Source: Chrysochromulina tobinii (Eukaryota). From it: a stretch of DNA of 45,457 bases. Location: assembly GCA_001275005.1 (NCBI GenBank), contig JWZX01002865.1:1-45457 (forward strand). The letters run 5' to 3'. A program made the position numbers and the translations under genes. This document shows, piece by piece, positions 1,446 to 45,376 of this stretch. Every line of letters starts with the position of its first letter. The first letter of the stretch is position 1. Below the pieces are notes generated by a model. That model ran no database searches, was not told the DNA's origin, and saw only the letters and a program-made list of their open reading frames with translations.

Positions 1446-2927
1446 ATGGCGGAGGTGTGTGAGAGCGCGGCGGCGGTGGTCAAGGACACGCCATCCCGGC
1501 GCAAGCGCAAGACGTCCGTGGAAGCAGAGGGGCCAGCCCTCGACGATCTACTTTGCAGCAAAGGCGGCGGCAGCGGCCCAGCTGAGGGTGAGCTCGCTAG
1601 CTTTGGTGGCGAGTCAAAGAGCCGGACACGGACGGCGGATGACTGCACGGCCACGCCGATCGGCAACTCCGCCTCCGCACGGCGAGCGCGCGTAAGCTTC
1701 GGCCACGTCCAGATTCGAACCCACGATGTCGAGATGTGGGGAGGCGGCGGCGTGCCAGCAGACGACGGGCCGCCGCTCGGCCTGGGCTGGGGTGTGAAGG
1801 AGGAGCGCGAGGTGGACATCGACGCGTTCGAGGGCGAGCGCGAGGGCGCGCGAACGCCAAAGGACTCGTACTGCATGGTCGGCTGCGTGGAGGCGCAGAA
1901 GCGCCAGGAGATGCTGGTCGCCTCCGGGACGTCACTCAAGCACATCAAGGCCGTCACTAAGCAGGTTGCGCAGCTCAACCAGGACAGGTGGCAGGCCTCC
2001 GAGCTGCTCTTTGGCGACGCGTGGCTCTTCCGGGCGCCGCGCCACTCCGACAATGGCGAGCTGCTCGCGATGCTCGGCCAGCCCGAATGCCACGGGAGCG
2101 AACTCTCGGCCGCCAACTGGCACAGCGCCGAAGCGTGTGCACGTGAGCTCGCGCAGTCGCTGCGGGTGCAGGTGGAGACGCTATATTCGCCGTCCTCCTC
2201 GGAAGTCGGCGAGGCCAAGCGTGGCCATCGCCGAGTCGGCGGCAGCGGCAGCGGCAGCGGCGACGTGCACGGTGGCGAGGGTCACAGCGAGGTCCTTTCC
2301 AGAGGGCGGGAGGACAAGGGCGCATGCAAATACCGGTACCAGGATGAAGGCGAGGAGACCGGCGAGGAGGCCGGCGAGGAGGAGGAGGGCGAGGAGGAGG
2401 AGGAGGAGGAGGAGGAGGGCGAGATCCTGTGGACCGCGTGCTCCGAGGCCATGCAAGCCCTCAAATCCCCACTGGTCCTCTTGATACGCTGCGACCAGGC
2501 CTACGATGGCGCGCTCAACATGCTCGGCAGGCTTGTCGGATGCGCCGCCAACGCGCACATCGCCACCCAGGTGCGTGCGACCAGCCGTTGCCGTGCGCTC
2601 TCCGTGCGCTCTCCGTGCGGCGCGCCGCTTCCCGTCGCGTCGTTTGCCGTCGCGTAGAAAACATATCCCAACATGCGTGCCGCCTGAGTGCCAGCATGCA
2701 TGCCTCCCTCCTGGTCTCGTTAGAATGCGTGCCTTCCTCCTTGTCTCATTCCCCCAGGCTAGCCTCTTGACAGTGCGGTGTGCCGTCTCGGCGCGTGGCG
2801 AGTGCAGGTATTGCAAGCGGCGCGCGCCCAGGTGATCATCGTGCTCCGCGGCTGGGCCGACGACAAGATCGAAGCTGACTGGTCCGACGACGAGCCTGAC
2901 GAATTCTGCATCTCGCCGTTACGCTGA
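1446..2927 (+). CDS. Hypothetical protein, predicted join(1446..2570,2808..2927)
   Basis: ORF with RVSF motif, DGPPLGLGW segment and poly-Glu tract; donor CAG|GTGCGT at 2571, acceptor TGCAG|GTA at 2807; phase-0 join gives ...IATQ-VLQAARAQVII...CISPLR*. Confidence 0.55.
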
Positions 2928-3035
2928 CGAATTCTGCATCTCGCCGTTACACTGACGAATTCTGCATCTCGCCGTTACGCTGACGAATTCTGCATCTCGC
3001 CGTTACGCTGACGAATTCTGCATCTCGCCGTTACG
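2896..3035 (+). repeat. Five tandem copies of 28-bp unit CTGACGAATTCTGCATCTCGCCGTTACG
   Basis: Directly visible; copy 2 ends in A instead of G; no spacers. Confidence 0.95.
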
Positions 3036-3863
3036 CCGAGTGCGCGCACTCGCAGCAGCAGCGCAGCAACGCAGCAGCAGCAGCATGCTCGGCGCCCCTG
3101 ACCGGGCTCGTTCTGGGCGGTGGCAGCGATCGGCGGACGGCTGCGAAAGGCGGGACAATGGGGCAGTGGGCGGCGGGACAGGTTGACGACGAACCGCTAA
3201 AGTTGCAATGATATGATATGAACGAGCTCATGGAGAAAAGGACTGTGAGAGGCGCGAAAGAAAAGGCGGCAGTTGGCTATTGGCAGATTGGCGGGTGGAT
3301 CCGGGATCGGGTGTACTGGATCGGGAGCTACAACGCAATGCCATGTATGGACACGCGCACGACAGCTCGACACCACGTGGCGACAGGCTAGACCGGACAG
3401 TACCGGGGGCGGTACTCGCGTCTGCACCCCTCTGACGCCGACCCCAGCGCGCTCACCGCACAGGGGTGGAGTAAGTCCGTAAGAAGTCGTGAGAGTGGAG
3501 TTAAAATGGAGTATACTATTGACAGCAGATATCCGCTTATTCAGCAACCGGTCCTCTCGCTCAGACGGGGGGCGGTCGTTATCGGTTGTGATGACACTTG
3601 ACAGCGGATTCCTGCCAGGTGCCGTTCCATGTTCCATGTTGCATGCCGCCTTACTCTCACGCCGACATCCCCTTCAAATTCCCCCACCGCAATTCAGGGG
3701 GTCCTGCCAATGCGTAGGTAGCTTGGTAAGTTACAAAGTTCTCTGCGGCGCGGATGATTGTCGCGTTCGGGTGACAGCTCCTCGCCTGTCAGCACACACT
3801 CGACGCGAATCCACTCGTCCCCACTTGTTTCAGTCTTAAACATACCTCGTCTTCCCACTGCCC

Positions 3864-6044
3864 ATGGAAGCAGAAGTGCGCTCTGAAATTGCTTTGACAA
3901 TCACGCCTCTTTCTTTCACAATCACAGGATCAGTCGTCGACGATTCACAAAATCGATGCATTTCCGTCCACATGCGAATACCGCCGCCCAGCGTGTCAGC
4001 ACCTGCGAAGGCGCGAACACGGAGCGCCTTTGAGATTGCCGCAGGGGCTCGACTGCTGAGGAGCAGCGCCGCCCTCGCAGCCGACGGCGAGAGCAACAGC
4101 CTGGACGACCGTGTCGCTGCGGAAAAGCGCGTTCTCGGTGCTGGTGGCAGTGGCAGCAAGTGTGCCAGTGGCAGCAGCAGCAGTCAGGCTGACCGACTCC
4201 CTGCACACCTCGATGGTGGTAGATGCAGCGTGGATGATCGCGCCGACAGCCTCGCGTGGCCTGGCATCGAGAAGGCCGAGAGCAATAGAGAAGGCTGTCC
4301 ACCTTGCGACGTGGTCGCTGCAGCGGCTTTGGCCAGGAAGCTCCGCAGGCGTTCGCTAGCTCAATCGTGGTGGCACTGGCGCGACTGCCTTGAGATTTCC
4401 CGCTCTGAGCGTTGGCTGCGGCTCCACACGATCTTCTTCCAGCTGCGTGAAGGCATCGTCCATGAGGTGGCTCGAGCGCGACTTCGGCACGCACTGCCCC
4501 GAGTGGACGCATCGCAACGGGCGCGTGGGCGCGCGCTTCGCCGCTGGCGAGCTGAGGCTGCACGCCGTCGAGCGCCGTGGCGAGCGCCCTGTCGAGCGCC
4601 GTGGCAAGCGGACCGCATGCACGGTCGGCCAGTCTCACCTTCGGCGCAGTCGGACACCTCGAGCCTCGCTCTGAGCCTGCGGAGCCTGAGCAGCAGCACT
4701 CTGCAAAGTGCCGCCACGACGGTGCTGCGGGGTCCTGTCTATGTGCCGGGCGGACCTGCACATTTTGGCAAGGGGGCTGCCTATGGCCCCCTTCGAGGTG
4801 GCCGTCTGAGAGGAGCCTTGCATGCAACCAGGATGGCTCCCGCCGCACTCGTGTCCACCGTTCGCCAGCTGGCGGTCCTTTGCTGCTGGTCCGCCCGAAC
4901 GCGGCGGGAAGCGCGTCTCATCGCGTCCGTGGCGGCGCTCGCGCGGCGGCGCGGGCGGCGTGCAGCATATCGCGCGCTGCGCTGGTGGGCCGTCGAGCGC
5001 CGCCGCGAGCGCGGCCGGCTTGCGATGTGGGCGTTGGCCGTCGAGGTTTCTCTCGAACGAGCGTGGGCGTGCTGGCGGCGCTACTCGGTCAAAGAGGCTC
5101 GTCGAGCGCGTGCGAGCAGCGCGCCCGTCCTATGGGCACTCGCTCCGTGGGCGCGTGCCGTGCGTTCGACGACTGTGCAGCGGCTGCGTCGCTCGTGTCG
5201 CCGTTGGGTACGCCGGTACCGCTCTCTCCGACCTCTGTCCCTTGCATGCAAGTGCTCACCACGGCGCGGCATCCTACCGTCCCCACAGGTGCGCCGGTAC
5301 CACGCAGACGCGCCTCTGCTGCATTCTCATCGGCAGGGGATGCGGGCGGCGGGCCGCTTCCGGAAACGGAACGTGTGGGTGCGCTTGAAGGCCGGCGCCG
5401 CTGCCGATGCGGAGCGTTGGCGTCGGTGGGCCAACGTGGAGGCGATCGCGCTGGCCCACCGCGGGCGGCATACGCTGCGCCGCTGGCTGCGCGTCTCGGA
5501 GCAGCGGCTGAGTGCAGGGCAGCGATGGCATGGCAGGCTTCTCCTCTTCAGCCTGGTCGGCGATATGGTGATGGCGCTGCACGAGTGGAAGCTCTACTGC
5601 GAGTACGAGGGTCCAATGCAGCAGGTCGTGGCGCTCTGTGGGCGGCGCGCCGGGTTGCGTCACGGCTTCCGTCGCTGGCGTCAGCAGCACGCCTCGGCAC
5701 CGGCACCCGCCCCAGCTCCCGCCCCGGCACCATCGCCCGCTCGATACGGCGCGGCACCCGCCCCAGCTCCCGCCCCGGCACCATCGCCCGCTCGATACGG
5801 CGCGTCACCCGCGTGGTCGCCGACGCGCTTGGCCTCGGCGTCACCACCCCAGTGGGGCCGCGGGCTACTGTCTGCTGCTGCCGATAGTGCCAGTGCCAGT
5901 GCCAGTGCCACGAGTGGCGCGCCCGCCATAGGAAATGCTTGCCGCAGTGCCGCCATGCAAGCAGCCGCAGCAGCCGCCGCAGCTGGTCCGACACACCCTT
6001 CGACTGCTCTACAGCGGGTGCAGGATGTGCAGGAGATGGATTAG
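3864..6044 (+). CDS. Arg/Trp-rich protein with Sfi1-like (centrin-binding-type) repeats; probable in-frame 81-nt intron 5208..5288
   Basis: Recurring motifs RALRRWR, LERAWACWR, RHTLRRWL, ALHEWK, RHGFRRWR; Pro/Ala tail with a 51-bp tandem duplication near 5703-5804; start codon uncertain. Confidence 0.45.
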   Translation: MEAEVRSEIALTITPLSFTITGSVVDDSQNRCISVHMRIPPPSVSAPAKARTRSAFEIAAGARLLRSSAALAADGESNSLDDRVAAEKRVLGAGGSGSKCASGSSSSQADRLPAHLDGGRCSVDDRADSLAWPGIEKAESNREGCPPCDVVAAAALARKLRRRSLAQSWWHWRDCLEISRSERWLRLHTIFFQLREGIVHEVARARLRHALPRVDASQRARGRALRRWRAEAARRRAPWRAPCRAPWQADRMHGRPVSPSAQSDTSSLALSLRSLSSSTLQSAATTVLRGPVYVPGGPAHFGKGAAYGPLRGGRLRGALHATRMAPAALVSTVRQLAVLCCWSARTRREARLIASVAALARRRGRRAAYRALRWWAVERRRERGRLAMWALAVEVSLERAWACWRRYSVKEARRARASSAPVLWALAPWARAVRSTTVQRLRRSCRRWVRRYRSLRPLSLACKCSPRRGILPSPQVRRYHADAPLLHSHRQGMRAAGRFRKRNVWVRLKAGAAADAERWRRWANVEAIALAHRGRHTLRRWLRVSEQRLSAGQRWHGRLLLFSLVGDMVMALHEWKLYCEYEGPMQQVVALCGRRAGLRHGFRRWRQQHASAPAPAPAPAPAPSPARYGAAPAPAPAPAPSPARYGASPAWSPTRLASASPPQWGRGLLSAAADSASASASATSGAPAIGNACRSAAMQAAAAAAAAGPTHPSTALQRVQDVQEMD

Positions 6045-15276: not shown

Positions 15277-17757
15277 TTACCGAAGCGGCGCCCCCTTCTC
15301 CTTCAATCCCTTGCGCGGCGAGTGGACCGCCGGGGCCAGCCTATCGCCACCTTGTCCCCACCTCACTGGCCATGCTACCTGCAGCATTTCGTCAGGTCCG
15401 CCCCTCGACAAGACCTCCAGACGCTCTGCAGTGCTACGCCCTCGGCCAGCGGAGGCAGGGCGCAAGGCCAGCGCAGACCTGCCTCCCCCGCTGGCCGCAT
15501 CCATCGCACGTGTGGACCCTATGGCACTCTGTGGTGCGGGCGGCGGGCGGCGAGGGCTGGTGATGGCCGGCGCAATCGGCTCTGTGGAAGCACCTGGGGT
15601 TTGGAAGCCCCGGAGCTGCGGCGCAACACGCCGGTAGGCTATCCCATTGTGAGGCCAATTGAGGCGTCGTGAGAGGAAGAAGAAGCCGTCAGCAGCCCCC
15701 GCCCCAGTCTCATTGTCTCGCTCCGTGTCACTTCCCCTCGGCCCCTTTTTATTGAAGCGCAGGTAGTAGTTGTCTTCGCGAGTGGGCGCGGCGGGCACGC
15801 GAGCTCCCTTGGCGGCCAGATTCGCAAGCACCCGCCGCCGGCTTTGCTGCTGGCGGCTGGTGAGTAAGACCGTGTTCACTTCGAGGGGCCAGACGGGCCG
15901 ACCCTTGCCACCGCACGGACGCCAGTCAGGCTTTGGCGCAACGGGCTCTGCGCTTGTCCCCGTCGGCGGTCGGTCCGTCATGTTTCCTGGGCCAGACGGA
16001 CCCATGCCCACGGGTGAGGCCGATCGCGCCGTGGCCAAGGGCGTCGACCCCCCACCCCCAGCAGATAACCCAGCAGAAGACACGCTCGGCGCAGGCGAGT
16101 CACGCCCGTGGAGCCTTGGGATCACCTCGAAGCTCGGCCGCCGCGTCGCCCTCGGAGAGAGCTCCCGAGAGACCTCCGAGGAGGCGCTCGCCATCGCACT
16201 GAAATTGAAGCTCGGACGGTCCTTTTCCTTCTCCTTACGACGCGCCTCGGGCCGCGTCAACCACTTTGCCATGTCGCCGATGCTCACCTGCTTCGGCTGT
16301 GACATGTGGAGAGCAGCGAGCGTTTCGAAAGCCTCGTCAACTGCACATCTCACCTTCTCGTACCAGAGCGCGACGCCCTCGGAATCGGACCCGCCGAGCT
16401 CGCCCGCGCCCCCAAACAGACATTTGAAGCGGACGAGCCACTCACGCTTCCCAAGAGAGCCATCGCCGCTCTTGTCCCACGCCTCTGGCAAGTCTGTCGG
16501 CCGAAGATCCGCCTCTCGAATCACGTGGCGCAGCTCATCACGTAGTCGGGCCTCACTCCAAGGCTCATCCTCGAGGCGCACGCGATGGCGCAGCGAGAGC
16601 GTGTGCACCACCTCCATACGCTTCTGCCTCCCAAACGAGCGTCCAAAGACCCATGAGTCCAGCTCGTCGAAGGTGACGGCGCCGCTCTCGTCTCCGTCGA
16701 GCTCAAGCCAGGCCGCGTTGAGAGCTGCCTTCCCGCCCCGGTAGCCAGGATGCCCTGCAGCCATGCAGCAGCACAGCAGACAGCACAGCGTCGGCTCGAC
16801 GGGCTACACTTAGGGTAACACTTCGGGCTGCACACGTGCTTCGAACACGTGCTGCGTGAATCGGGTTGTCTTCCAACACAGAGCTCACAAGCATGCAATC
16901 ACAGTGCACTCATCAGTGGGGACAGGCTGTGGCCGAAGCGCGTGCCTTCCATCATCGAGAGGAACTCTCCGTAGCTGCACACAAAGTCCGAGTTCTTGTC
17001 GGCCTGGTTAAAGAGGTGAGAGAGCTTCACGGAGTGCAGCTTCACTAGCCGGCACAACTCCCGCTTGACGCCGGCCGCTGAGTCCGCTGTGAATGACCAA
17101 CTGCTCGTGTCGATGTGCTCGTGATCCTTGGTCGCGTTCCAGCCAGCACATGAGCAGGGAGGCAATCCGCGTTCACCCAACACATGCCATGCACAGACAA
17201 TCAGCATGCAATCGCTCTGCAATCAGCGTGCTATCAGCATGCTATCAGCATGTAATCACGATCCTTGGGCTTACCTTGGTCGGGTCCCAGCACATGATGA
17301 GGAAGAGGTCGCGCACATTGGCCGACAAGAAGTTGGTCGTCTCCTCGTCGCTCATGCCGTCGATCGTGGCGAGCACCTCCGCGTAGTCGAGGAAGCCGTC
17401 GCTCTTTTTATCGAGGTGATCGCGGTCGAGTTCTTGGAAGATCTCTTGTGCGTTCACGCTGCCCGGCTCGATACCAAGGCTCTCAACCGCACGGCTGAAC
17501 TGGTGGACGTCCAAGCAGCCGGAGCCATCCACATTGAATCGCATGAAAAAGCGTTTAGCTCCCGAGCCTGCGACGATCGACTCGGGGCTCATCGACCACT
17601 TGAAGAAGGCGCCCATGCTAATCAACCCAGAATTTGTGACGTCGAGCTCATCAAACCAATGGCGGAGATCGTTTGGCTTGCGCAGTTCCCGGACGCGTTC
17701 AGGCAGAGCCGCGACAAACTCATCGAAATTTACCAGGTCCGACTTGGGCCGGGCCAT
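15277..17757 (-). CDS. Multi-EF-hand calcium-binding protein, predicted complement(join(15277..16754,16946..17126,17275..17757))
   Basis: EF loops DVTNSGLISMGAF, NVDGSGCLDVHQF, DKNSDFVCSYGEF, DGDESGAVTFDEL, DKSGDGSLGKREW; GT-AG intron 17127..17274 and GC-AG intron 16755..16945 keep the frame. Confidence 0.75.
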
Positions 17758-37514: not shown

Positions 37515-39578
37515 TCATTCAACTTTTGGTGCAAAGCATAGGAAGGCGCTGGGAGGCACTGCAGCAGATCTGAGAATGCTGTCATCGAAGCCGGCGGGCA
37601 GCTTGATTGACGCCAACGAGGAGCAGCCATCGAAAGCGCGCTCACCGATGCTCGTGAGGCCCGCGGGCAGCTCGATCGACGTCAAAGAGGAGCAGCCACG
37701 GAAGGCGCCCCAATCGAGGCTGGTGAGGCCTGCAGGCAGCTCGATCGACGTCATCGAGGAGCAGTCCTCGAAGGCTAACTTACCGATGCTCGTGATGCCG
37801 GCGGGCAGCTCGATCGACGTCAATGAGGAGCAGCCAGAGAAGGCCTCCTGACCGATGCTCGTGAGGCCAGCGGGGAGCTCGATCGATGTCAATGAGGAAC
37901 AGCCATTGAAGGCGCCCCAATCGAGGCTCGTGAGGCCTGCAGGCAGCTCCATCGATGTCATCGAGGAGCAGCCATCGAAGGCGTACTCACCGAGGCTCGT
38001 GATGCCGGCGGGCAGCTCGATTGACGTCAAAGAGGAGCAGCCAGAGAAGGCCTCCTTACCGATGCTCGTGAGGCCGGCGGGTAGCTCGATCGATGCCAAC
38101 GAGGAGCAGCCATGGAAGGTGAACACACCGAGGCTCGTGAGGCCGGCAGGCAGCTCGATCAACGTCAACGAGGAGCAGTCATCGAAGGCGCACATACCGA
38201 TGCTCGTGAGGCCAGCAGGCAGCTCGATCGACGTCAATGAGGAGCAGCCATCAAAGGCGCACATACCGATGCTCGTGAGGCCGGCGGGCAGCTCAATCGA
38301 CGTCAACGAGGAGCACCCATTGAAGGCGTGCTCACCGATGCTCGTGAGGCTGGCGGGCAGCTCGATCGACGTCAACGAGGAGCAGAGAAAGAAGGCGCCC
38401 TCACTGATGCTCGTGAGGCCGGCAGGCAGCTCGATCGACGTCAACAAGGAGCAGCCCTCGAAGGCGCTTTCACTGATGTTTGTGAGGCCTGCAGGCAGAG
38501 CGATCGACGTCATCAATGTGTCGTCGCGGAACGCGCCCGGCGGCACGCGCGCCTCGCCATGGCGCAGCGCGCACGCGGCGAGCAGCACCTCCATCGGCGC
38601 CTCGCCCTCGCCGCGGATGCACGCGCGCACCCCTGCCATCGGATACGGCGGTGGACCCTCTTCATCTTCTTCTGATCCATCCGAAGACGCCACGCTCCTC
38701 AGCGCGGCCACGTCCACCTCGAAGCCGCCCAGCCCCGTCACTTTTTCCAGGTTGGGCAGCCAGCGCGATGCGTCGACCGCGTCGGCGAAGAGGCGACCGG
38801 CGGCGCGGCTGCCCGAGAGGTCGAGCTTGGTCACCTCGACGAGGTTTCTCGTGAGTCGCAGGCCGACGCGTGCGCACAGCCGCGCGCACAGGACGCGCCG
38901 CACCCGCGCGCGCCACGAGAGGCTCACGCCCTTGAGCGCGCACAGCGTCGGCACGTCGGCGCCCGCGAGGGCGTCCTCGAGGGCGTCCTCGTTTACGAGC
39001 TGCGTCGAGAGCCAGCACACGGGCGCTGGCGTTGTGGGTGCGTCGGCCGCTCGCAGTGCGGTGGCGTCGTGCTGAGCGTCGTCGTGCGTGAAGATCTGCT
39101 CCTCCGTCGCCGCCTGCCGCTCCGCCTCGGTGGGGAAGTCGCTCACGACACCAAGCAGCCGCCCGAGCTCCGGGCTACTCTTGCCGGCGAGGTGGCCGGT
39201 GCACAGGGAACGCGAGAGGAGGCGGAGAAGCTCGACGTCCACGTCGAGAAAGTGCGCGCCGTGCAACAGCTGCGCGAGCTGCGCGAGCGAGCACCCCTCC
39301 AGCGCCCTGCCATCCTCCGCCCCGCCCTCGGCGACGCGCGAGAGCGTGCGGAGCGCAGCCGCAGGCACCAGAGTGGCGAACGCCCCCTCAGCGCCGCCCG
39401 TGTCGCTCACCCAGTTGGCGAGCGCCGCCGATCGCGCCGCGGCCAAACGGGACCACGCGACCACCTCGCCCTCGGCGCTTCGCACCCTCACATCGCCGTC
39501 GTCGCCGACATAGCCGATGACGTCGCCGCCGCCGCTGTCACCGCCGCCGCCGACGTCACCGTCCCGACATCGCTTCAT
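37515..39578 (-). CDS. SKP1-like + F-box-like + BspA-type (LRR_5) leucine-rich repeat protein
   Basis: 13 full 23-aa repeats LTSIELPAGLTSIGxxAFxGCSS; N-terminal LLHGAHFLDV..LAGKSSPELGRLLGVVSDF..AERQAATEE; NEDALEDAL..DVPTLCALKGVSLSWR. Confidence 0.8.
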   Translation of the reverse strand: MKRCRDGDVGGGGDSGGGDVIGYVGDDGDVRVRSAEGEVVAWSRLAAARSAALANWVSDTGGAEGAFATLVPAAALRTLSRVAEGGAEDGRALEGCSLAQLAQLLHGAHFLDVDVELLRLLSRSLCTGHLAGKSSPELGRLLGVVSDFPTEAERQAATEEQIFTHDDAQHDATALRAADAPTTPAPVCWLSTQLVNEDALEDALAGADVPTLCALKGVSLSWRARVRRVLCARLCARVGLRLTRNLVEVTKLDLSGSRAAGRLFADAVDASRWLPNLEKVTGLGGFEVDVAALRSVASSDGSEEDEEGPPPYPMAGVRACIRGEGEAPMEVLLAACALRHGEARVPPGAFRDDTLMTSIALPAGLTNISESAFEGCSLLTSIELPAGLTSISEGAFFLCSSLTSIELPASLTSIGEHAFNGCSSLTSIELPAGLTSIGMCAFDGCSSLTSIELPAGLTSIGMCAFDDCSSLTLIELPAGLTSLGVFTFHGCSSLASIELPAGLTSIGKEAFSGCSSLTSIELPAGITSLGEYAFDGCSSMTSMELPAGLTSLDWGAFNGCSSLTSIELPAGLTSIGQEAFSGCSSLTSIELPAGITSIGKLAFEDCSSMTSIELPAGLTSLDWGAFRGCSSLTSIELPAGLTSIGERAFDGCSSLASIKLPAGFDDSILRSAAVPPSAFLCFAPKVE

Positions 39579-39685
39579 GCTAAAAAAGGAGAGGACTGAA
39601 GGTTATGGACTTCAATGAGAGGCAGCTGACGAAATAACTGATTGACCGCGTGGTGCTCAAACTTTGAGTTCACGAACTTTCTGAA

Positions 39686-41664
39686 ATGCGAGCTCTCCAT
39701 GTACAAAAGTATACCATGAAGTCATCAGCTCTCCGTCGATCCTCAAGACGAGTCCGTGGCATGCCGATTTGCGGCGGGCGGACTGCTGCCGTGCAGTTTC
39801 TATCTCTTCTTGGGACGGCCGGAAGCTGCCTCGCGCTTTCTGTTCGAACATCGCCGTCTGTGCGAACATCGCCGCCGTTCGCCTGTGCGACGCAGCAAAG
39901 TCCGACGCCGCAAAAATTGACGGTCCCAAGTAGCTCCGGTGCCCAGTGCTTCATCTTCACGAGCTGCCAAGCTGGGTCCGAGAAGCTCCTCAAGGCCGAG
40001 CTCGCACGCACCCATCCGGAGCTCCGGTTCGCCTACTCGCGCCCGGGGCTTGTCACCTTCAAGAATAGCTCCGCGGACGGGAGCGTCTCTCCGGCGGTGT
40101 CCCTCCGCTCGTCCTTCTCCCGTGTGCACGGCGCCTCCGTCGGCCAAGCAAGGACCGCGCCGGAGGTCTGCGAGCTCGCGCGGCGCCTACCGTCCATCCA
40201 TTCGCACATCCGCCCTCCTCTGTGCCTGCACGTGTGGAGCCGCGATCTAGCAGGTGCGCGTGCGATGCACCCAACCGCCGTGAGCGAGCGAGCGGCCCGG
40301 GTGGTCGCCCTCCGGCGCGAGCTGCAGGCGTGCGCCCCCGACCTATGGGCTCCGAGTGAACTCGCTCAGGAAGGCGCGCCGGTGCTCTCAGTGATCCTCG
40401 GCGAGGCTGACGAACCTTTCTTTGTCGGGGTGCACACCCATCAAAGCTACGAGGAGGAGGGGGTCCCTCCGCGAGGCGCGGGCGCCGTAATGGGCGCACC
40501 GAACGCCATGTTGAGTGCGTCTTCAGCTGCGCGTGGGCGGGGCGCGGGCGGCGGCACGATCGGCCCTCCCAAAGATGGCAATCCTTCCAAATATGGGAGC
40601 GCATGCGACCGACCGATCGTCCTACGGCGCGCGCACGTGCCGCACGCCGGAGCGCTCTTCCCCGGCTTGGAGCAGGTACGTTGATGGCCACCGATGCCCT
40701 GCCCTGCATGCAAGTGCTCACCACAGCGCCTCGACTCTACCCCGATTTGGAGCAGCACCCGATCGAAGCGCCGTCGCGGGCGTACTTGAAGGTCGAGGAA
40801 GCGCTGCGTTGGGCAGGCGCGATGATCGAGCTGCGCGCGGGCGACACAGCGCTCGAGATTGGATCTGCGCCAGGTGAGATTGGATCTGCGCCCGGAGGGG
40901 CCGCCTCCATGATTGCCTCCATGATTGCCCAGAGTGCTCCTCTGATGACCTCCCTGATGGCCTCCCTGATGATGACCTCCCTGATGACTTCCCTGATGAC
41001 TTCCCTGAAGCCTGATGGCCTCCCTGGATGGCCTCCCTGATGGCCTCCCTGAGTGCCTCCCCCGAGCCAAAATGGAAGAAAAAGACAAGGAGATATGGAA
41101 GAATGCGTGCCCCCTTCATAGGTGGGGCCGCCTATGCCCTCCTCGAGCGCGGGCTGCGCGTCTACGGCGTCGACCCGACGCCGCCCGGGCGCAAGCACGC
41201 GCCGATCGTGGCCGAGCATCCGAGATTCGTCGAGATCGTGGCGCGGCTCGGCGAGCCGGGGCTGCTCCAGCGACTCCCAACCGACGTCGACTGGCTCCTC
41301 TGCGACGCCAACATCGCGCCCGACGTGGCCGTGCCCCATCTCGCCGACCTGTGCTCGCGCTGTGGTGAGCGGCTGCAGGGCCTCTTCTACACTTGCATGC
41401 AAGTGCTCACCACGGCGCTCTTTCCCCACAGGTGAGCGGCTGCAGGGCCTCTTCTACACTTGCAAGCTGGGCGAGAAGCTCTGGACGAAACCGGCGCAGA
41501 TGCTCGATGAGCTCGAGGCGCTCAAGGCGCAGCTCGCGGAGGCGGCGGACTTTGGCGTGATGCAGAGCGTCCAGCTGAGCGCCAACCGGCAAGAGCTGCT
41601 CGTCCTGGGCGTGACGCGTAGGGGGCTCCAGAGGGCAGAGGGGCGCACGGCGTCCTGGGCGTAA
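39686..41664 (+). CDS. RlmM/YgdE-like (FtsJ family) RNA 2'-O-methyltransferase, predicted join(39686..40675,40756..40873,41122..41364,41432..41664)
   Basis: Spliced product has APSRAYLKVEEAL, ALEIGSAPGGAAYALLERG..YGVDP, VDWLLCDAN, TCKL, QLSANRQE; all three GT-AG introns keep the frame; start may be 39716 or later. Confidence 0.8.
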
Positions 41665-42875: not shown

Positions 42876-43909
42876 GGTTTGTTATCGAGTTTGGGGGGGT
42901 TTGTTATGTATCAGGATACGTATCCCATGTATCACGCATGTATCCCGCATGTATCCCGCATGTATCCCGCATGTATCTTGATGTGTCCCGTTCATATATA
43001 CATCAAGATACATCAAGATACATCGAGATACATTTGTATCTTGACTTTGGCCATCATAGGAAATGTATCTTACCTAGGGATATGTATCCTTCTTTACGAT
43101 ACATTTAGGATACAGTAAGGATACATTTAGAATACAATGTATCTTAACCCTCAGATACATGACACACAAGATACATGCACGATACATGTCAGATACAAAG
43201 GGATACATTCGTACATTCGAGGATACGTATCTCGAGCCCGACTTGCGGGGCGCGTGGATTCCCCCAAACCCCCGAGATACGTGTCCCGCATGTATCCCGC
43301 ATGTATCCCGCATGTATCCCGCATGTATCCCGCATGTATCCCGCATGTCTCAATTCATATCGGATGCATCTCTCTCTGGATGCATTTGAGATACATGTAT
43401 CTCATCATGTATCTTGGATATATCCCGCATGTATCTTGATCACCCTTGCAGATACACGATGTATCTCGCATGTATCCCGAATGTATCTTGCATCTCAGAT
43501 ACTGTACGTACCTCGTCATGACGCATCCAAGATACATGTACACATGTATCGTGATTTTGTATCTCGGTGTATCCTGATGTATCATAAGATGTATCGTGAT
43601 GAAGAGTCCAAGATACACGTATCCTGATGTATCCTGATATGTATCCAGTGTGACACCAGGAGGAAGCGCCCAAGATACATGTATCTTGATGTATCTGATA
43701 TTATGTATCCCAAAATGTATCTTGGACTCGTTTGGGATACGTGTAAACTACATGATTCTCTTGGAATGTAACAGGGCATTTAAGATACATTTGAGATACA
43801 TCAGGATACATGAGGGATACATGTATCCTTCAGGATACACGCAGGATACATCACGATACATCAGGATACGTATCCTGATAACAAACCCCCCCAAACTCGA
43901 TAACAAACC
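42876..43909. mobile_element. MITE/foldback-like element with about 46-bp TIRs and GTATC/GATAC-rich interior
   Basis: GGTTTGTTATCGAGTTTGGGGGGGTTTGTTAT(GTAT)CAGGATACGTATCC versus its reverse complement at 43864-43909; 11-bp tandem ATGTATCCCGC arrays. Confidence 0.8.
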
Positions 43910-44185
43910 CCCCCGCAGCCTGCCAGGGCCCCCGGGGCGGGGGCGCCGGCCGCCTTCCGGCCGCCGGGGGAGGGTGGGTAAAGAATGCTGAATGCAGAAT
44001 GGACAACAGCGAACAGGGTACATCGTGAGAATGCAGAATGTACAACGGTCGAACGGTCGGAGGCTCGGAGCCAGACAGTGAAAATTTAAGCTGGTTCGTG
44101 CCTCGAGCCTCCACCGCGCAACCACGGCCTCGTGCATGTCGATTTGACGATTTCGATGTGAACAAGGGCCGGAGAAATCACTCAT

Positions 44186-44423
44186 GTTGACCCAAGGGGG
44201 AGTGGTCTACTATTTTATTCATGTTTATAAGGCCCTAACCCCACACCTGTTTGGGAACTGAATGGTTGACCCAAGGGGGAGTACGTCTACTATTTTTCAT
44301 GTTTATAAGGCCCTAACCCCACACCTGTTTGGGAACTGAATGGTTGACCCAAGGGGGGAGTGGTCTACTATTTTTCCAGTGTTTATAAGGCCCGTAACCC
44401 CACACCTGTTTGGGAACTGAATG
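44186..44423 (+). repeat. Three tandem copies of a 78-81-bp unit
   Basis: GTTGACCCAAGGGGGAGT..TCTACTATTTT..GTTTATAAGGCCC..CCCCACACCTGTTTGGGAACTGAATG starting 44186, 44265, 44343. Confidence 0.92.
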
Positions 44424-45376
44424 GGGTGGGCTTACCTTACATGTTTTCATGCACAAGAGACGAATCGCCGCGTGTCCAATGAAAGTTTGAAACCTTTCTC
44501 GCAGATCCCTCGCATGCCGTTTTTCTTTTTTTACGTGGGGTTTCGTGGCGTTAAGCCGTAATGTCTACTGAGCGTGCTGTTCATGTGCGGACCTGTCTAT
44601 CCGCTGGACATGTTCTACATGTGCGGACCTGTCGATCCCGTCTGCTGGACATGTTCTACTCTACATGTAAGCGAACAGTAACAAAAAGCCTGTGACTGTC
44701 ATGATAATGTGACTGTGTCTGTATTATCATGATACGTGTAGACTTCAGTTCACCGCCGCGGCGCTTTGCGCCGCGGGTCTCGTCTAGTCGATAGAGAAAT
44801 CGATAGAGAAATCCAAAATTGGAAAGTCGGCTGCTGTAAAGGTGGCAGCTCGGCTCGCAGACATGTACAGTACTCTATACGTCACTCGCAAATGGTCAGT
44901 CTACATTTGCCTTGAGGTGTGTCTCTCGAGACTCTCTCGAGGTGTCGATTAGCCCCGCGAAACTGTTTAGGTGTTTTCTAAATCGGCCGGTCGTACAACG
45001 CTGCCATCCCGATTCCCGAAGATGGACTTTGAGGAGTATCGAATATGTGTAAAAGTTGCTTGAAAAATTCCCAGGTGGGCGCGCCGTCCTGATGTCCGGC
45101 GTGTGCCCTGGCAACGACCTTCCGTATCCGTTACAAGCTGGATTCGCGCCGAGCACGCTGGTGCTGAGAGGCTCAGGATAGATAGGCCAAGGGGCGGGGG
45201 GGAGTGGGGTCAAGCAAGCAAGGAAGCTTGACCCATGCTCAGCCCCGAGGTCAAGCTTGACCCCACCCCTCTTGCTTGACCCGGACCCTCTCAAGACCTA
45301 ACGGGCGGTCAAGCTATAAGCTTCCGCTCGTCGCGCTTCGGTGGCGCGGGTCAACCAAGGTGGACGCGAAGCCCTG

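Follow-up and report, generated by a model that had tools for sequence, protein, structure and literature searches.

A 20-nt core shared by three short introns of Chrysochromulina tobinii belongs, as our analysis supports, to a high-copy intron family whose members are sense-oriented, apparently recent and share a copied module. In this family the core stands between two duplicates of exon sequence, and two mirror classes differ in the splice site that comes with the core; one copy is spliced in RNA, pieces of flank are common to different copies, and neighbouring copies tend to be kin. We regard template switching that is primed by microhomology on existing introns, its products filtered by selection, as the best reading of this anatomy, with a probability of about one in two. 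Our literature search found no description of this intron family.

The core and its host introns in the window

The window, that is, the whole 45,457-nt stretch of DNA analysed, had been the subject of a preliminary description that pointed to a 27-nt identity between 5241-5267 and 41392-41418, to a 20-nt core recurring at 40705 and to the sense orientation of all three within predicted introns, two of which end alike. Direct matching bears this out: the 27-nt stretches agree without a mismatch, the core occurs at 5243, 40705 and 41394, always on the + strand and each time within a GT-AG intron, and CCCCACAG closes both 5208-5288 and 41365-41431. No further core copies were found in the window at up to 3 mismatches, the core is absent from the other introns there, and 100 shuffles of the 20-mer search gave 0 matches against the 3 observed. 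The features are the following.

3864..6044, + strand: host gene 1, encoding an Arg/Trp-rich protein, family unassigned; five homologues, 82-99% identical
4819..4826, + strand: separate TGCATGCA palindrome
5208..5288, + strand: intron of class A (acceptor-carrying), 81 nt, GT-AG, phase 0, stop-free, putatively spliced
5208..5222, + strand: T1, intron-side duplicate, supplying GT and retaining the Arg codon found in homologues
5243..5262, + strand: 20-nt core, with a palindromic TGCATGCA start and then branch-point-like GCTCAC
5263..5288, + strand: acceptor tail, consisting of GGCGC, a pyrimidine-rich stretch and CCCCACAG
5289..5303, + strand: T2, exon-side duplicate, reading VRRYH
39686..41664, + strand: host gene 2, an RlmM/FtsJ-like SAM-dependent rRNA methyltransferase with three introns
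40655..40675, + strand: T1, exon-side duplicate of class B, ending in AG; 18/21 identical to 40735-40755
40676..40755, + strand: intron of class B (donor-carrying), 80 nt, GT-AG, predicted to be spliced
40874..41121, + strand: intron without the core, 248 nt, whose start copies exon sequence found on either side of the junction
41365..41431, + strand: intron of class A, 67 nt, GT-AG, core at 41394-41413, spliced in RNA
41365..41397, + strand: T1, identical over 33 nt to 41432-41464 and overlapping the core start with its last bases (microhomology)
41432..41464, + strand: T2, exon-side; the encoded residues align gap-free with intronless homologues

The 81-nt intron had been described as stop-free and hidden inside an ORF call, and as starting with a match to the next exon, and both statements hold. 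Within the stop-free ORF 3840-6044 it sits in phase 0, stop codons are absent from all three + frames, and 5208-5222 and 5289-5303 are identical at 12/13 and 13/15 positions. At the duplicate the homologues read VRRYR or VRRCR, and none has the H. Exactly the 27 codons of 5208-5288 are missing, in a protein-level comparison, from 19 of the 21 close homologous proteins that cover the site, 4 of these 19 being encoded on contigs of 14.0-17.7 kb; it is these homologues that suggest that the segment is spliced. The candidate branch A at 5258, which would serve as the branch point, lies 30 nt from the AG. Gene callers read through in-frame stop-free copies of this kind (P0107, P0113).

Relatives of host gene 1 have a 17-aa insert adjoining the palindrome at 4819-4826, between two copies of GPxRGG, and two of them have it twice. 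The 10-aa middle of this insert equals the minus-strand translation of the 4819-4826 region. The protein sequences thus point to a DNA-level inverted local insert in the relatives, which would start at TGCATGCA and lie between duplicates. Pfam gave no matches to six ORF pieces of both host genes.

Host gene 2, read from the ATG at 39716, encodes 517 aa when all three introns are removed, and is truncated at 322, 414 or 463 aa when one of them is retained. In 40676-40755 a 29-nt donor head (40676-40704) is followed by the core (40705-40724), AGCGC and T2 (40735-40755), which supplies the AG; here it is the intron end that copies the previous exon, at 18/21 positions. The core-less 40874-41121 continues after its exon copy with arrayed CTGATG/GATTGCC units that are akin to the head of class B. 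The perfect 33-nt exon duplicate of 41365-41431 had gone without mention in the preliminary description, and a 14-nt complement beside 41365, which suggested pairing with the antisense module, is an oddity of this copy, not a general feature.

The preliminary description had named retention of these segments as exon in RNA-seq as a refuting outcome. In X14 (record 22) and X15 (record 28), two of the three RNA runs examined, RNA contigs join 41363 to 41431, which is the GT-AG cut displaced by one shared G, whereas one contig of RNA run X13 is unspliced there, as is DNA run X1 (record 5), whose contig spans 41368-41460 with zero differences. For 40676-40755 there is no RNA joint among the matches listed and one X15 contig passes through unspliced; its reading frame and homology nevertheless argue that it is an intron. 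Among the copies in the window, 41365-41431 is the only one with splicing shown by RNA.

In the sequences searched, neither a parent element nor a small RNA came to light. Rfam at the gathering threshold gave no matches over the whole window, and viral contigs contained no core. The two matches in prokaryote genomes (Flavobacteriales MAGs) were rejected as chance, because flanking module sequence is absent and about 1.1 matches are expected. None of the three core introns folds stably (z 0.88, 0.84 and -0.13), and a hairpin model of the terminal-inverted-repeat or fungal ILE-like kind was rejected, the intron folds being no better than those of shuffles.

Two mirror classes and the kinship of copies

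The preliminary description proposed a high-copy family of recent introns with a shared 3' module, to be judged by the rarity of the 20-mer, how far it lies from the 3' splice site and how long the flanking duplications are. The motif is not rare: exact 20-mer matching, by which all loci were picked, gave 135 metagenome loci, and about 1600 stretches are estimated for the whole collection (runs X19-X21, with next to none of the words present, were left out). DNA depth at the core is 174-366x single-copy per bin, which is to be read as 'many' rather than as a copy number. Relative to the host the core is sense in 46, antisense in 4 and unclear in 83 of 133 cases, by a weak strand classifier that gave the correct direction on 4 of 6 held-out stretches. 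GCTCAC lies 22-37 nt from the AG across copies, and the core was found upstream of 73 of 79 pyrimidine-CCACAGG acceptors in the core-selected loci and the window. The copies have 25-55 nt in common rather than sharing sequence end to end, the common core itself measuring about 25 nt; the acceptor-tail sub-type of 5263-5288, for example, recurs in L096 and L056. The claim of an apparently recent high-copy family therefore stands on these loci, on their orientation and on the homologues empty at 5208, but the module is not only a 3' one: in the mirror class, for example in 40676-40755, the 5' donor comes with the core and the AG is provided by the duplicate.

The defining footprint of the family is the flanking duplication, which is 10-44 nt long, variable and imperfect. 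At a score of at least 10, a splice-site-anchored exon duplication surrounds the core in 63 of 95 non-tandem copies, compared with 7 of 400 controls made from swapped pairs. When unanchored duplications are allowed the figure rises to 82/95, and 13/95 have none. In 49 copies the acceptor is carried and the duplicate gives the GT (class A), in 14 the duplicate gives the AG and the donor is mostly carried (class B), and about a fifth (20/95) have neither donor head nor acceptor tail. One end is fixed and the other variable; class A has its fixed end at 3', class B at 5'. Class B ends 4-9 nt past the candidate branch A, where it shares microhomology with the beginning of the duplicate.

Class A statistics rest on 48 copies (L030 dropped, at least one orthologous pair included). 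Their duplicates have a median of 27 nt, a range of 10-44 nt and a mean identity of 95%; 14 are perfect and 34 differ between the two copies. Intron size is 67-92 nt in 46/48, the three length classes modulo 3 are about equally filled (15/17/16), and fillers tend to be shorter where duplicates are longer (rho -0.52). The base before GT is G in 38/48 and the dinucleotide AG in 19/48, against backgrounds of 26% and 6%. Error-prone copying of the duplicate was rejected: mismatches are evenly spread (9/180, 10/259, 19/269 and 11/223), and the A/T is more often on the side of the intron copy (21 versus 13), a pattern in line with ordinary ageing. As a rule of target choice, pairing with the antisense module was likewise rejected, the match at -8..-2 being 2.31 against a background of 2.35 (p=0.68). 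Among 72 non-exact copies anchored on the right half of the core, the left 10 nt differ at no more than 2 positions in 43, at 3 in 2 and at 5 or more in 27, many of the latter being chance matches or one array.

Several copies contain flank pieces of other, non-orthologous copies. L096 holds the exon-derived intron start of L056, and L036 holds the exon-derived tail sequence of L010 followed by its own upstream flank. L006/L068 and L031/L049/L129 have whole tails in common, with targets that match the donor's last 9-14 nt, and L063/L069 and L083/L084 are further such pairs. The captured pieces found so far all come from within the donor intron. From splice site to splice site, L096 and L031/L049/L129 resemble whole introns. 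Among copies without donor head (61 copies, 12 contigs), those less than 10 kb apart have 7.9 flanking bases in common against 4.0 when permuted (p=1e-4; worst leave-one-out p=0.0013), same-strain grouping being presumed from contig-name prefixes. Local kinship becomes weak when the 82 copies are all taken together (p=0.018, with 0.066 in the worst leave-one-out and 0.26 for the upstream side alone). Opposite-strand neighbours are also kin (L012/L013 and the L062 pair). Microhomology at the junction of module and duplicate averages 2.75 nt against 0.97 expected (p=7e-4), in a small sample confined to donor-head junctions (8 scorable of 23 donor-head copies). The 99%-identical alleles L074/L126 show repeat-number polymorphism, and in L051/L058 one SNP is altered in both duplicates, so conversion happens. 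Where the preliminary description spoke of a mobile or templated module, this flank evidence favours templating from other copies over a mobile element with fixed ends.

Origin of the introns

In the template-switching reading, a broken or stalled DNA end would use microhomology to prime on an intron copy that is already there, often one in the neighbourhood, and would copy the predicted branch-point core together with one splice site. It would then switch back upstream in its own gene, so that an exon stretch is copied again, with the GCATGC palindrome at the left core edge as a possible favoured switch point. The enzyme could be a polymerase-theta-like repair polymerase, and the template DNA or perhaps a nearby nascent transcript. 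Among the products, selection would retain those in sense orientation that reach about 65 nt and have a T1 starting with GT (class A) or a T2 ending in AG (class B), since in these cases the mRNA is restored exactly by splicing. Each new intron would become a new donor, and the family could grow as a chain without an autonomous element. Several observations count against this reading: the sharp left edge of the core looks like the end of a discrete element, the whole-intron captures fit an excised-intron RNA template equally well, later gene conversion among neighbours could give kinship without local birth, 13/95 copies lack a duplication, and an autonomous partner may exist.

The main rival, which we consider possible rather than probable, starts from RNA: at a staggered nick, a LINE/Penelope-type reverse transcriptase or a repair polymerase would copy into DNA either intron RNA, excised or trimmed, or a SINE-like transcript, and variable target-site duplications would result. 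Class A would then stem from RNAs that end at the AG, copied in 5'-truncated form, and class B from lariats that had been trimmed to a few bases beyond the branch point and were copied in full, in keeping with where class B ends and with the microhomology there. The long and variable duplications, the fixed end exactly at the splice site in each class, the sense bias, the whole-intron copies and the sharp left edge all suit such a source, as does the excess of G and AG before GT, which pairing with a CAG-ending RNA predicts; selection for splicing, however, also predicts this excess and the fixed ends. No poly(A) or simple-repeat tail is present, the tails being pyrimidine-rich acceptors or AGCGC plus filler, and no reverse transcriptase partner is known. 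For a SINE head derived from tRNA, 5S or 7SL, the Rfam scan of the window gave no match at the gathering threshold. Cis or DNA templates are needed to account for local kinship that includes opposite-strand neighbours, for L036 with its junction of several templates and for the local insert that relatives carry in inverted form.

The duplication could also have come first, as a plain tandem exon duplication to which gene conversion from other introns later added the core, improving splicing. Core-less introns with a duplication do exist (40874-41121, +; 17127-17274, minus), L051/L058 demonstrate conversion through their concerted change, and in 53 diverged copies GCTCAC has 16/87 mismatches, under its 30% share (p=0.01), but the branch A and the -2 T, with 7/87, are not significantly better conserved (p=0.35). 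We think this order of events unlikely: a lone 10-44-nt duplicate is smaller than the observed introns and mostly lacks its own AG (29/48), so that the intermediate would disrupt the frame, and the core sits precisely where the duplicates meet. An origin as a MITE-like DNA-transposon introner, of the kind described for marine Chrysochromulina MAGs, Aureococcus or Polarella, is highly improbable. Carrying one splice site and co-opting the other from the duplication is what published introners are described as doing, and introner families are reported for the genus in TARA MAGs; the target-site duplications given in those accounts, however, are short and fixed per family, and the length spread found here already largely refutes this origin, to which the variable module-side end, the differing fillers and ends that are not inverted repeats may be added. 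An assembly artefact from mis-resolved repeats, or a chance motif extending the branch-site consensus, is hardly credible. Short repeats do trouble short-read assembly and introns are expected to hold a branch-like motif, yet the X1 DNA contig has no differences over 41368-41460, RNA contigs are spliced exactly, independent assemblies have the same structures with allele-specific SNPs, most class A duplicates differ between their copies and other introns of the window lack the core; nor could point change reach 20-27-nt identity where 95%-identical homologues lack the intron.

Building on template switching, we tentatively offer a broader picture, which may well turn out otherwise, of a transposon-free chain in which repair synthesis copies a branch-point cassette into a nearby exon and duplicates 10-45 nt of target, the product being both an intron and the next donor. 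Introns numbering hundreds to thousands may have arisen through such a chain in an algal population alive today, and introner pipelines that rely on end-to-end similarity would not see them. The origin of new spliceosomal introns is a long-standing question, and mass gains are now credited to transposons; if true, this would be a route of intron gain that needs no transposon. The family preserves an unusually full record of events, with long target duplicates, donor pieces, empty alleles and repeat-number polymorphism, so that donor-to-recipient genealogies and the choice between DNA and RNA templates become directly testable.

Comparison with known systems

Polymerase-theta templated insertions and microhomology-mediated template switching produce microhomology junctions, multi-step fillers and tandem duplication, as found here, and use local direct or inverted templates, as may be the case here. 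To our knowledge, such events are one-off repair scars and not a self-amplifying source of a spliceosomal intron family.

The family works like an introner, with common sequence in many introns at unrelated sites, precisely spliced insertions (shown by the RNA joint at 41365-41431, and suggested by frame and homology at 5208-5288 and 40676-40755) and empty sites in relatives, but it has no terminal inverted repeats, its ends not being complementary on inspection, and no fixed target-site duplication. In the part of a 2025 survey that lists species, C. tobinii appears with 0 introner families (PMC12130899, supplement 7), and about 72% of introner elements are given there as not confidently categorisable (PMC12130899); if the assembly in that survey has the core family, current pipelines miss such families.

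Hypoxylaceae sister (stw)introns, according to the portion of the report cited here (Fekete et al. 2021, PMC8469720), resemble the core family as proliferating, sequence-similar introns with a central palindrome, and microhomology-mediated end joining is invoked for their cropped derivatives. They integrate without target-site duplications and have 45-55-nt terminal inverted repeats, whereas our family has long duplications and no stable fold. Introns from tandem genomic duplication take both sites from a duplicated AGGT without foreign sequence (Yenerall and Zhou 2012, PMC3443670), and Daphnia introns from double-strand-break repair have short repeats (PMC3443670). As those routes are outlined there, exon duplication gives splice-site sequence and direct repeats flank the intron, as here; AG precedes GT in only 19/48 class A copies, however, and the core family inserts one shared, repeatedly copied core, foreign sequence being present in every copy by the selection of loci.

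In Polarella glacialis and Symbiodinium, introner-like elements of classes 4/5 and 6/8/10 use the element end as the 3' site and the duplication's 5' end as the 5' site (Roy et al., 10.1101/2020.10.14.339549), which is the logic of our class A. The Polarella duplications are fixed, at 3, 4, 5 or 8 nt where that text states them, Symbiodinium elements are described with terminal inverted repeats, and several classes work in both orientations (10.1101/2020.10.14.339549); none of these properties holds for the core family. The source organism clusters with Chrysochromulina. A marine Chrysochromulina sp. has an introner family with co-opted splice sites, for which the cited section gives a 4-bp duplication (Gozashti et al. 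2022, 10.1101/2022.06.06.494994 / PMC9860276). Here, in contrast, duplications of 10-44 nt are variable and imperfect, only 25-55 nt are common to the copies, one core serves both mirror classes, and flank pieces of other copies are present in the copies.

The core in the window and in metagenomes

The 20-nt core TGCATGCAAGTGCTCACCAC has three plus-strand matches in the 45-kb window, at 5243, 40705 and 41394, with no further copies there at up to three mismatches and no matches in 100 shuffles of the window. The 27-mers starting at 5241 and 41392 are identical. These positions agree with the preliminary description, which was also right that the start of the 81-nt, stop-free predicted intron 5208-5288 matches the next exon start (12/13) and that two introns end in CCCCACAG. 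Core density is 66 per Mb (three copies in 45.5 kb; 95% range 14-193). A scan for GT..AG segments with flanking repeats, from which four repeat-rich regions were excluded, listed 11 candidates, among them 5208-5288, 40676-40755 and 41365-41431. The palindrome TGCATGCA occurs eight times in the window (1.1 expected), which also holds the following repeats and genes:

17127-17274, minus strand: candidate 148-nt coreless intron in an EF-hand gene; repeat units as in the intron 40874-41121, AG supplied by an exon-end duplication
42900-44430: region of higher AT content holding 11-nt CATGTATCCCG arrays, together with 78-81-nt repeats in which CCCTAACCC occurs; includes a candidate telomere-like motif
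37515-39602, minus strand: BspA-type LRR gene, 13 units of 69 nt
2868-3067: 28-nt tandem array
7752, 12525 and 19190: dispersed CTTGA microsatellites, both orientations

In 5/64 parts of a metagenome collection, in culture and other assemblies, the exact 20-mer was found at 135 loci, and about 1600 core-bearing stretches are estimated in the collection. These loci hold 53 more cores with 1-4 mismatches, 51 of them on the strand of an exact copy. The core was absent from viral contigs, and two matches in prokaryote genomes were attributed to chance. Two window proteins cluster at 90% identity with proteins annotated as Chrysochromulina parva, so the window probably comes from a Chrysochromulina haptophyte.

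Anatomy of the copies

Removing duplicate loci and filtering by flank length left 133 exact copies, 38 of them in tandem arrays. In 63 of the 95 non-tandem copies, as against 7/400 swapped pairs, the core lies between the intron-side and exon-side copies of an anchored duplicate (GT/GC upstream, AG downstream, score at least 10). Class A copies (49) carry the acceptor, and the intron start copies the next exon; class B copies (14, the few calls without a donor head being doubtful) mostly carry the donor, and the intron end copies the previous exon. An unanchored duplication in 19 of the 32 unclassified copies brings the total with a duplication to 82/95, and we regard a real intron family with long duplications as close to certain.

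In class A (48 copies, L030 dropped), duplicates span 10-44 nt (median 27, 95% identical, 14 perfect) and their length is anticorrelated with that of the filler (rho -0.52, p=2e-4); introns measure 67-92 nt in 46/48, with lengths spread evenly modulo three. The A of GCTCAC sits 22-37 nt from the AG. As the branch-point consensus is generally of CTRAY type, this spacing makes the adenosine a candidate branch point. Among diverged copies GCTCAC is somewhat protected (16/87 mismatches, p=0.01), and its A and -2 T are not singled out for conservation (p=0.35). The class B donor head measures 29-30 nt. Because the base 3' of the core tracks class (A in 10/13 donor-head versus 6/61 acceptor-tail copies, p=2e-6), classes A and B represent two lineages; neither end module was found in 20/95 copies, and both in one.

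A codon model, itself weak, oriented 46 of the 133 copies as sense and 4 as antisense, leaving 83 unclear. Read in antisense, the core gives a GTGAG donor site. L044 and L097 show an apparent opposite-strand 3' end of a repeat-type intron downstream of the core, possibly an antisense copy. Core or half-core arrays have units of 45 (L004, L008), 48 (L033), 39 (L075) and 18 nt (L039), all multiples of three, and consecutive units are not separated by evident splice sites; such arrays may be either translated or non-coding.

Host genes of the window introns

The site of 5208-5288, in a gene for an Arg/Trp-rich protein, is covered by 21 of 26 homologues inspected. Its 27 codons are read through in two (P0107, P0113), and exactly these are absent from the other 19, four of which are encoded on contigs 14.0-17.7 kb long, suggestive of empty sites in genomic DNA. 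Where the window allele's exon encodes His, all 19 have Arg, and they are therefore not spliced transcripts of that allele; the intron-side copy retains the ancestral Arg codon. Because the predicted intron is absent both from the closest relatives (95%) and from more distant ones, its gain is the simpler reading. The 135 loci, the estimate of about 1600 and these 19 homologues support the proposal of a high-copy family of recent introns, and the core-bearing introns are a real, high-copy and apparently young family.

At the same gene, P0110-type relatives carry GCMQGSSQTA between two copies of GPxRGG. This insert, doubled in P0123 and P0132, is the minus-strand translation of window 4770-4835, beginning at a TGCATGCA palindrome, and may be a clue to inverted local templating. 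In P0110, P0111, P0123 and P0132 an in-frame insert reads, once or twice, as an inverted copy of window 4800-4826 between duplicates.

The second host gene yields an RlmM/FtsJ-like methyltransferase of 517 aa when 40676-40755, 40874-41121 and 41365-41431 are all removed; keeping any one cuts it to 322, 414 or 463 aa. The spliced product has zero indels at all three junctions against P0007, P0009 (encoded on an 11.9-kb contig) and nine other P0007-cluster members. Among the contigs listed from three RNA runs and one DNA run, X14 and X15 each have one RNA contig in which 41363 is followed directly by 41431; this joint is the GT-AG cut of 41365-41431 displaced by one shared G and shows the segment to be spliced out. 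The segment is unspliced in the DNA run X1 and in one contig of the RNA run X13. For 40676-40755 the RNA contigs listed contain no joint, and one X15 contig running through it unspliced may be DNA or retention. Close relatives in the P0003 cluster read FPGLEQAR and then stop at this junction, which fits the GC-donor head variant of L031/L049/L129 and would make a single intron polymorphic for a GT or GC donor.

Window 41357-41370, spanning the exon/intron junction of the 41365 intron, is reverse-complementary over all 14 nt to 40716-40729 in the class B copy and is 13/14 complementary to the intron's own core, so that its donor and candidate branch sites can pair; the fold of 41350-41435 has a z of -3.19. 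Such donor/core complementarity is not general across core copies; at this site it may be a coincidence, or the GT may stem from a local inverted patch. The coreless intron 40874-41121 starts with a copy of exon sequence from both sides of its junction; two synonymous differences fall precisely on the AG/GT. Next come CTGATG/GATTGCC repeat units of 9-15 nt that resemble and are related to the head of class B; this arrangement suggests a broader vocabulary of intron-building modules.

Mechanism of gain and comparison with known introners

The family's existence is close to certain, and uncertainty is confined to mechanism. We favour, with a probability of about 0.5, template switching, in which a new intron would be primed by microhomology on an existing copy and selection would retain products that splice cleanly. 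This would account for duplicates that are long and variable, for fillers and captured flanks, for kinship both local and inverted, and for copies that lack splice sites. L096 holds the beginning of the L056 intron, which derives from exon, as well as a separate 14-nt duplicate of its own, and L036, whose reading frame is continuous once the intron is removed, combines a head variant and an exon-derived tail common with L010 with an end matching its own upstream flank. Entire tails are common to L006/L068 and to L031/L049/L129, with targets matching the donor's last 9-14 nt, and fillers or tails to L063/L069, L083/L084, L019/L087 and L014/L103. Microhomology was scored in eight of the 23 copies with a donor head, which adjoin the module and overlap it by 1-6 nt (mean 2.75 versus 0.97 expected, p=7e-4), and the last bases of the 41365 duplicate are the first bases of the core. 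Across 82 copies on 57 contigs presumed to be of the same strain, copies without donor head less than 10 kb apart have 7.89 flanking bases in common versus 3.97 by permutation (p=1e-4; worst leave-one-out 0.0013); kinship over all 82 is weaker (p=0.018; upstream alone 0.26; worst leave-one-out 0.066), and later conversion may be the source of kinship among neighbours.

At GCATGC the core has a sharp left edge (43/72 non-exact copies nearly intact there, few intermediate truncations), which counts against a purely random switch; template switching needs the extra assumption that this palindrome would be a switching hot spot. Copying of RNA by a reverse transcriptase would explain why ends are fixed, why whole introns are copied and why class B ends just past the candidate branch point, but it requires a cis preference, and we hold it possible yet doubtful. 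Other explanations fit more poorly than either: duplication first with the core added by later conversion is improbable, a MITE introner very improbable and an artefact hardly credible. Copy structure is still changing: L074 is one repeat unit longer than L126, an allele 99% identical to it; L051 and L058, alleles 98.9% identical, differ by one SNP that is altered in both exon and intron copies of a 16-nt duplicate, either because these very short repeats change in concert or because the site received two insertions. We tentatively propose a transposon-free chain of intron gain by template switching, each product being the next donor.

The core family behaves as an introner; in membership tests it fell outside both MITE-type introners and tandem-duplication introns. 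We found no published description of it in a search of largely non-subscription literature; the comparison also took in Yenerall and Zhou 2012 (PMC3443670), the 2024 review PMC11282704 and PMC12403724. Gozashti 2022 (PMC9860276) describes a marine Chrysochromulina introner family whose TSDs measure 4 bp and which has no TIR. In supplement 1, all Chrysochromulina rows among places 1-32 of 214 come from TARA MAGs, and a search of the available portion of that file for a 13-nt piece of the core gave no match. As far as available, Gozashti 2025 (PMC12130899) lists C. tobinii with 0 introner families and does not name Chrysochromulina in the main text, and neither of two motifs searched occurs in supplements 1-12 of 14. 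The introns of Fekete 2021 (PMC8469720) lack TSDs, whereas the core family has long duplicates, and those of Roy 2020 (10.1101/2020.10.14.339549) have fixed TSDs of 3-8 nt, in contrast to the 10-44 nt duplicates of the core family.
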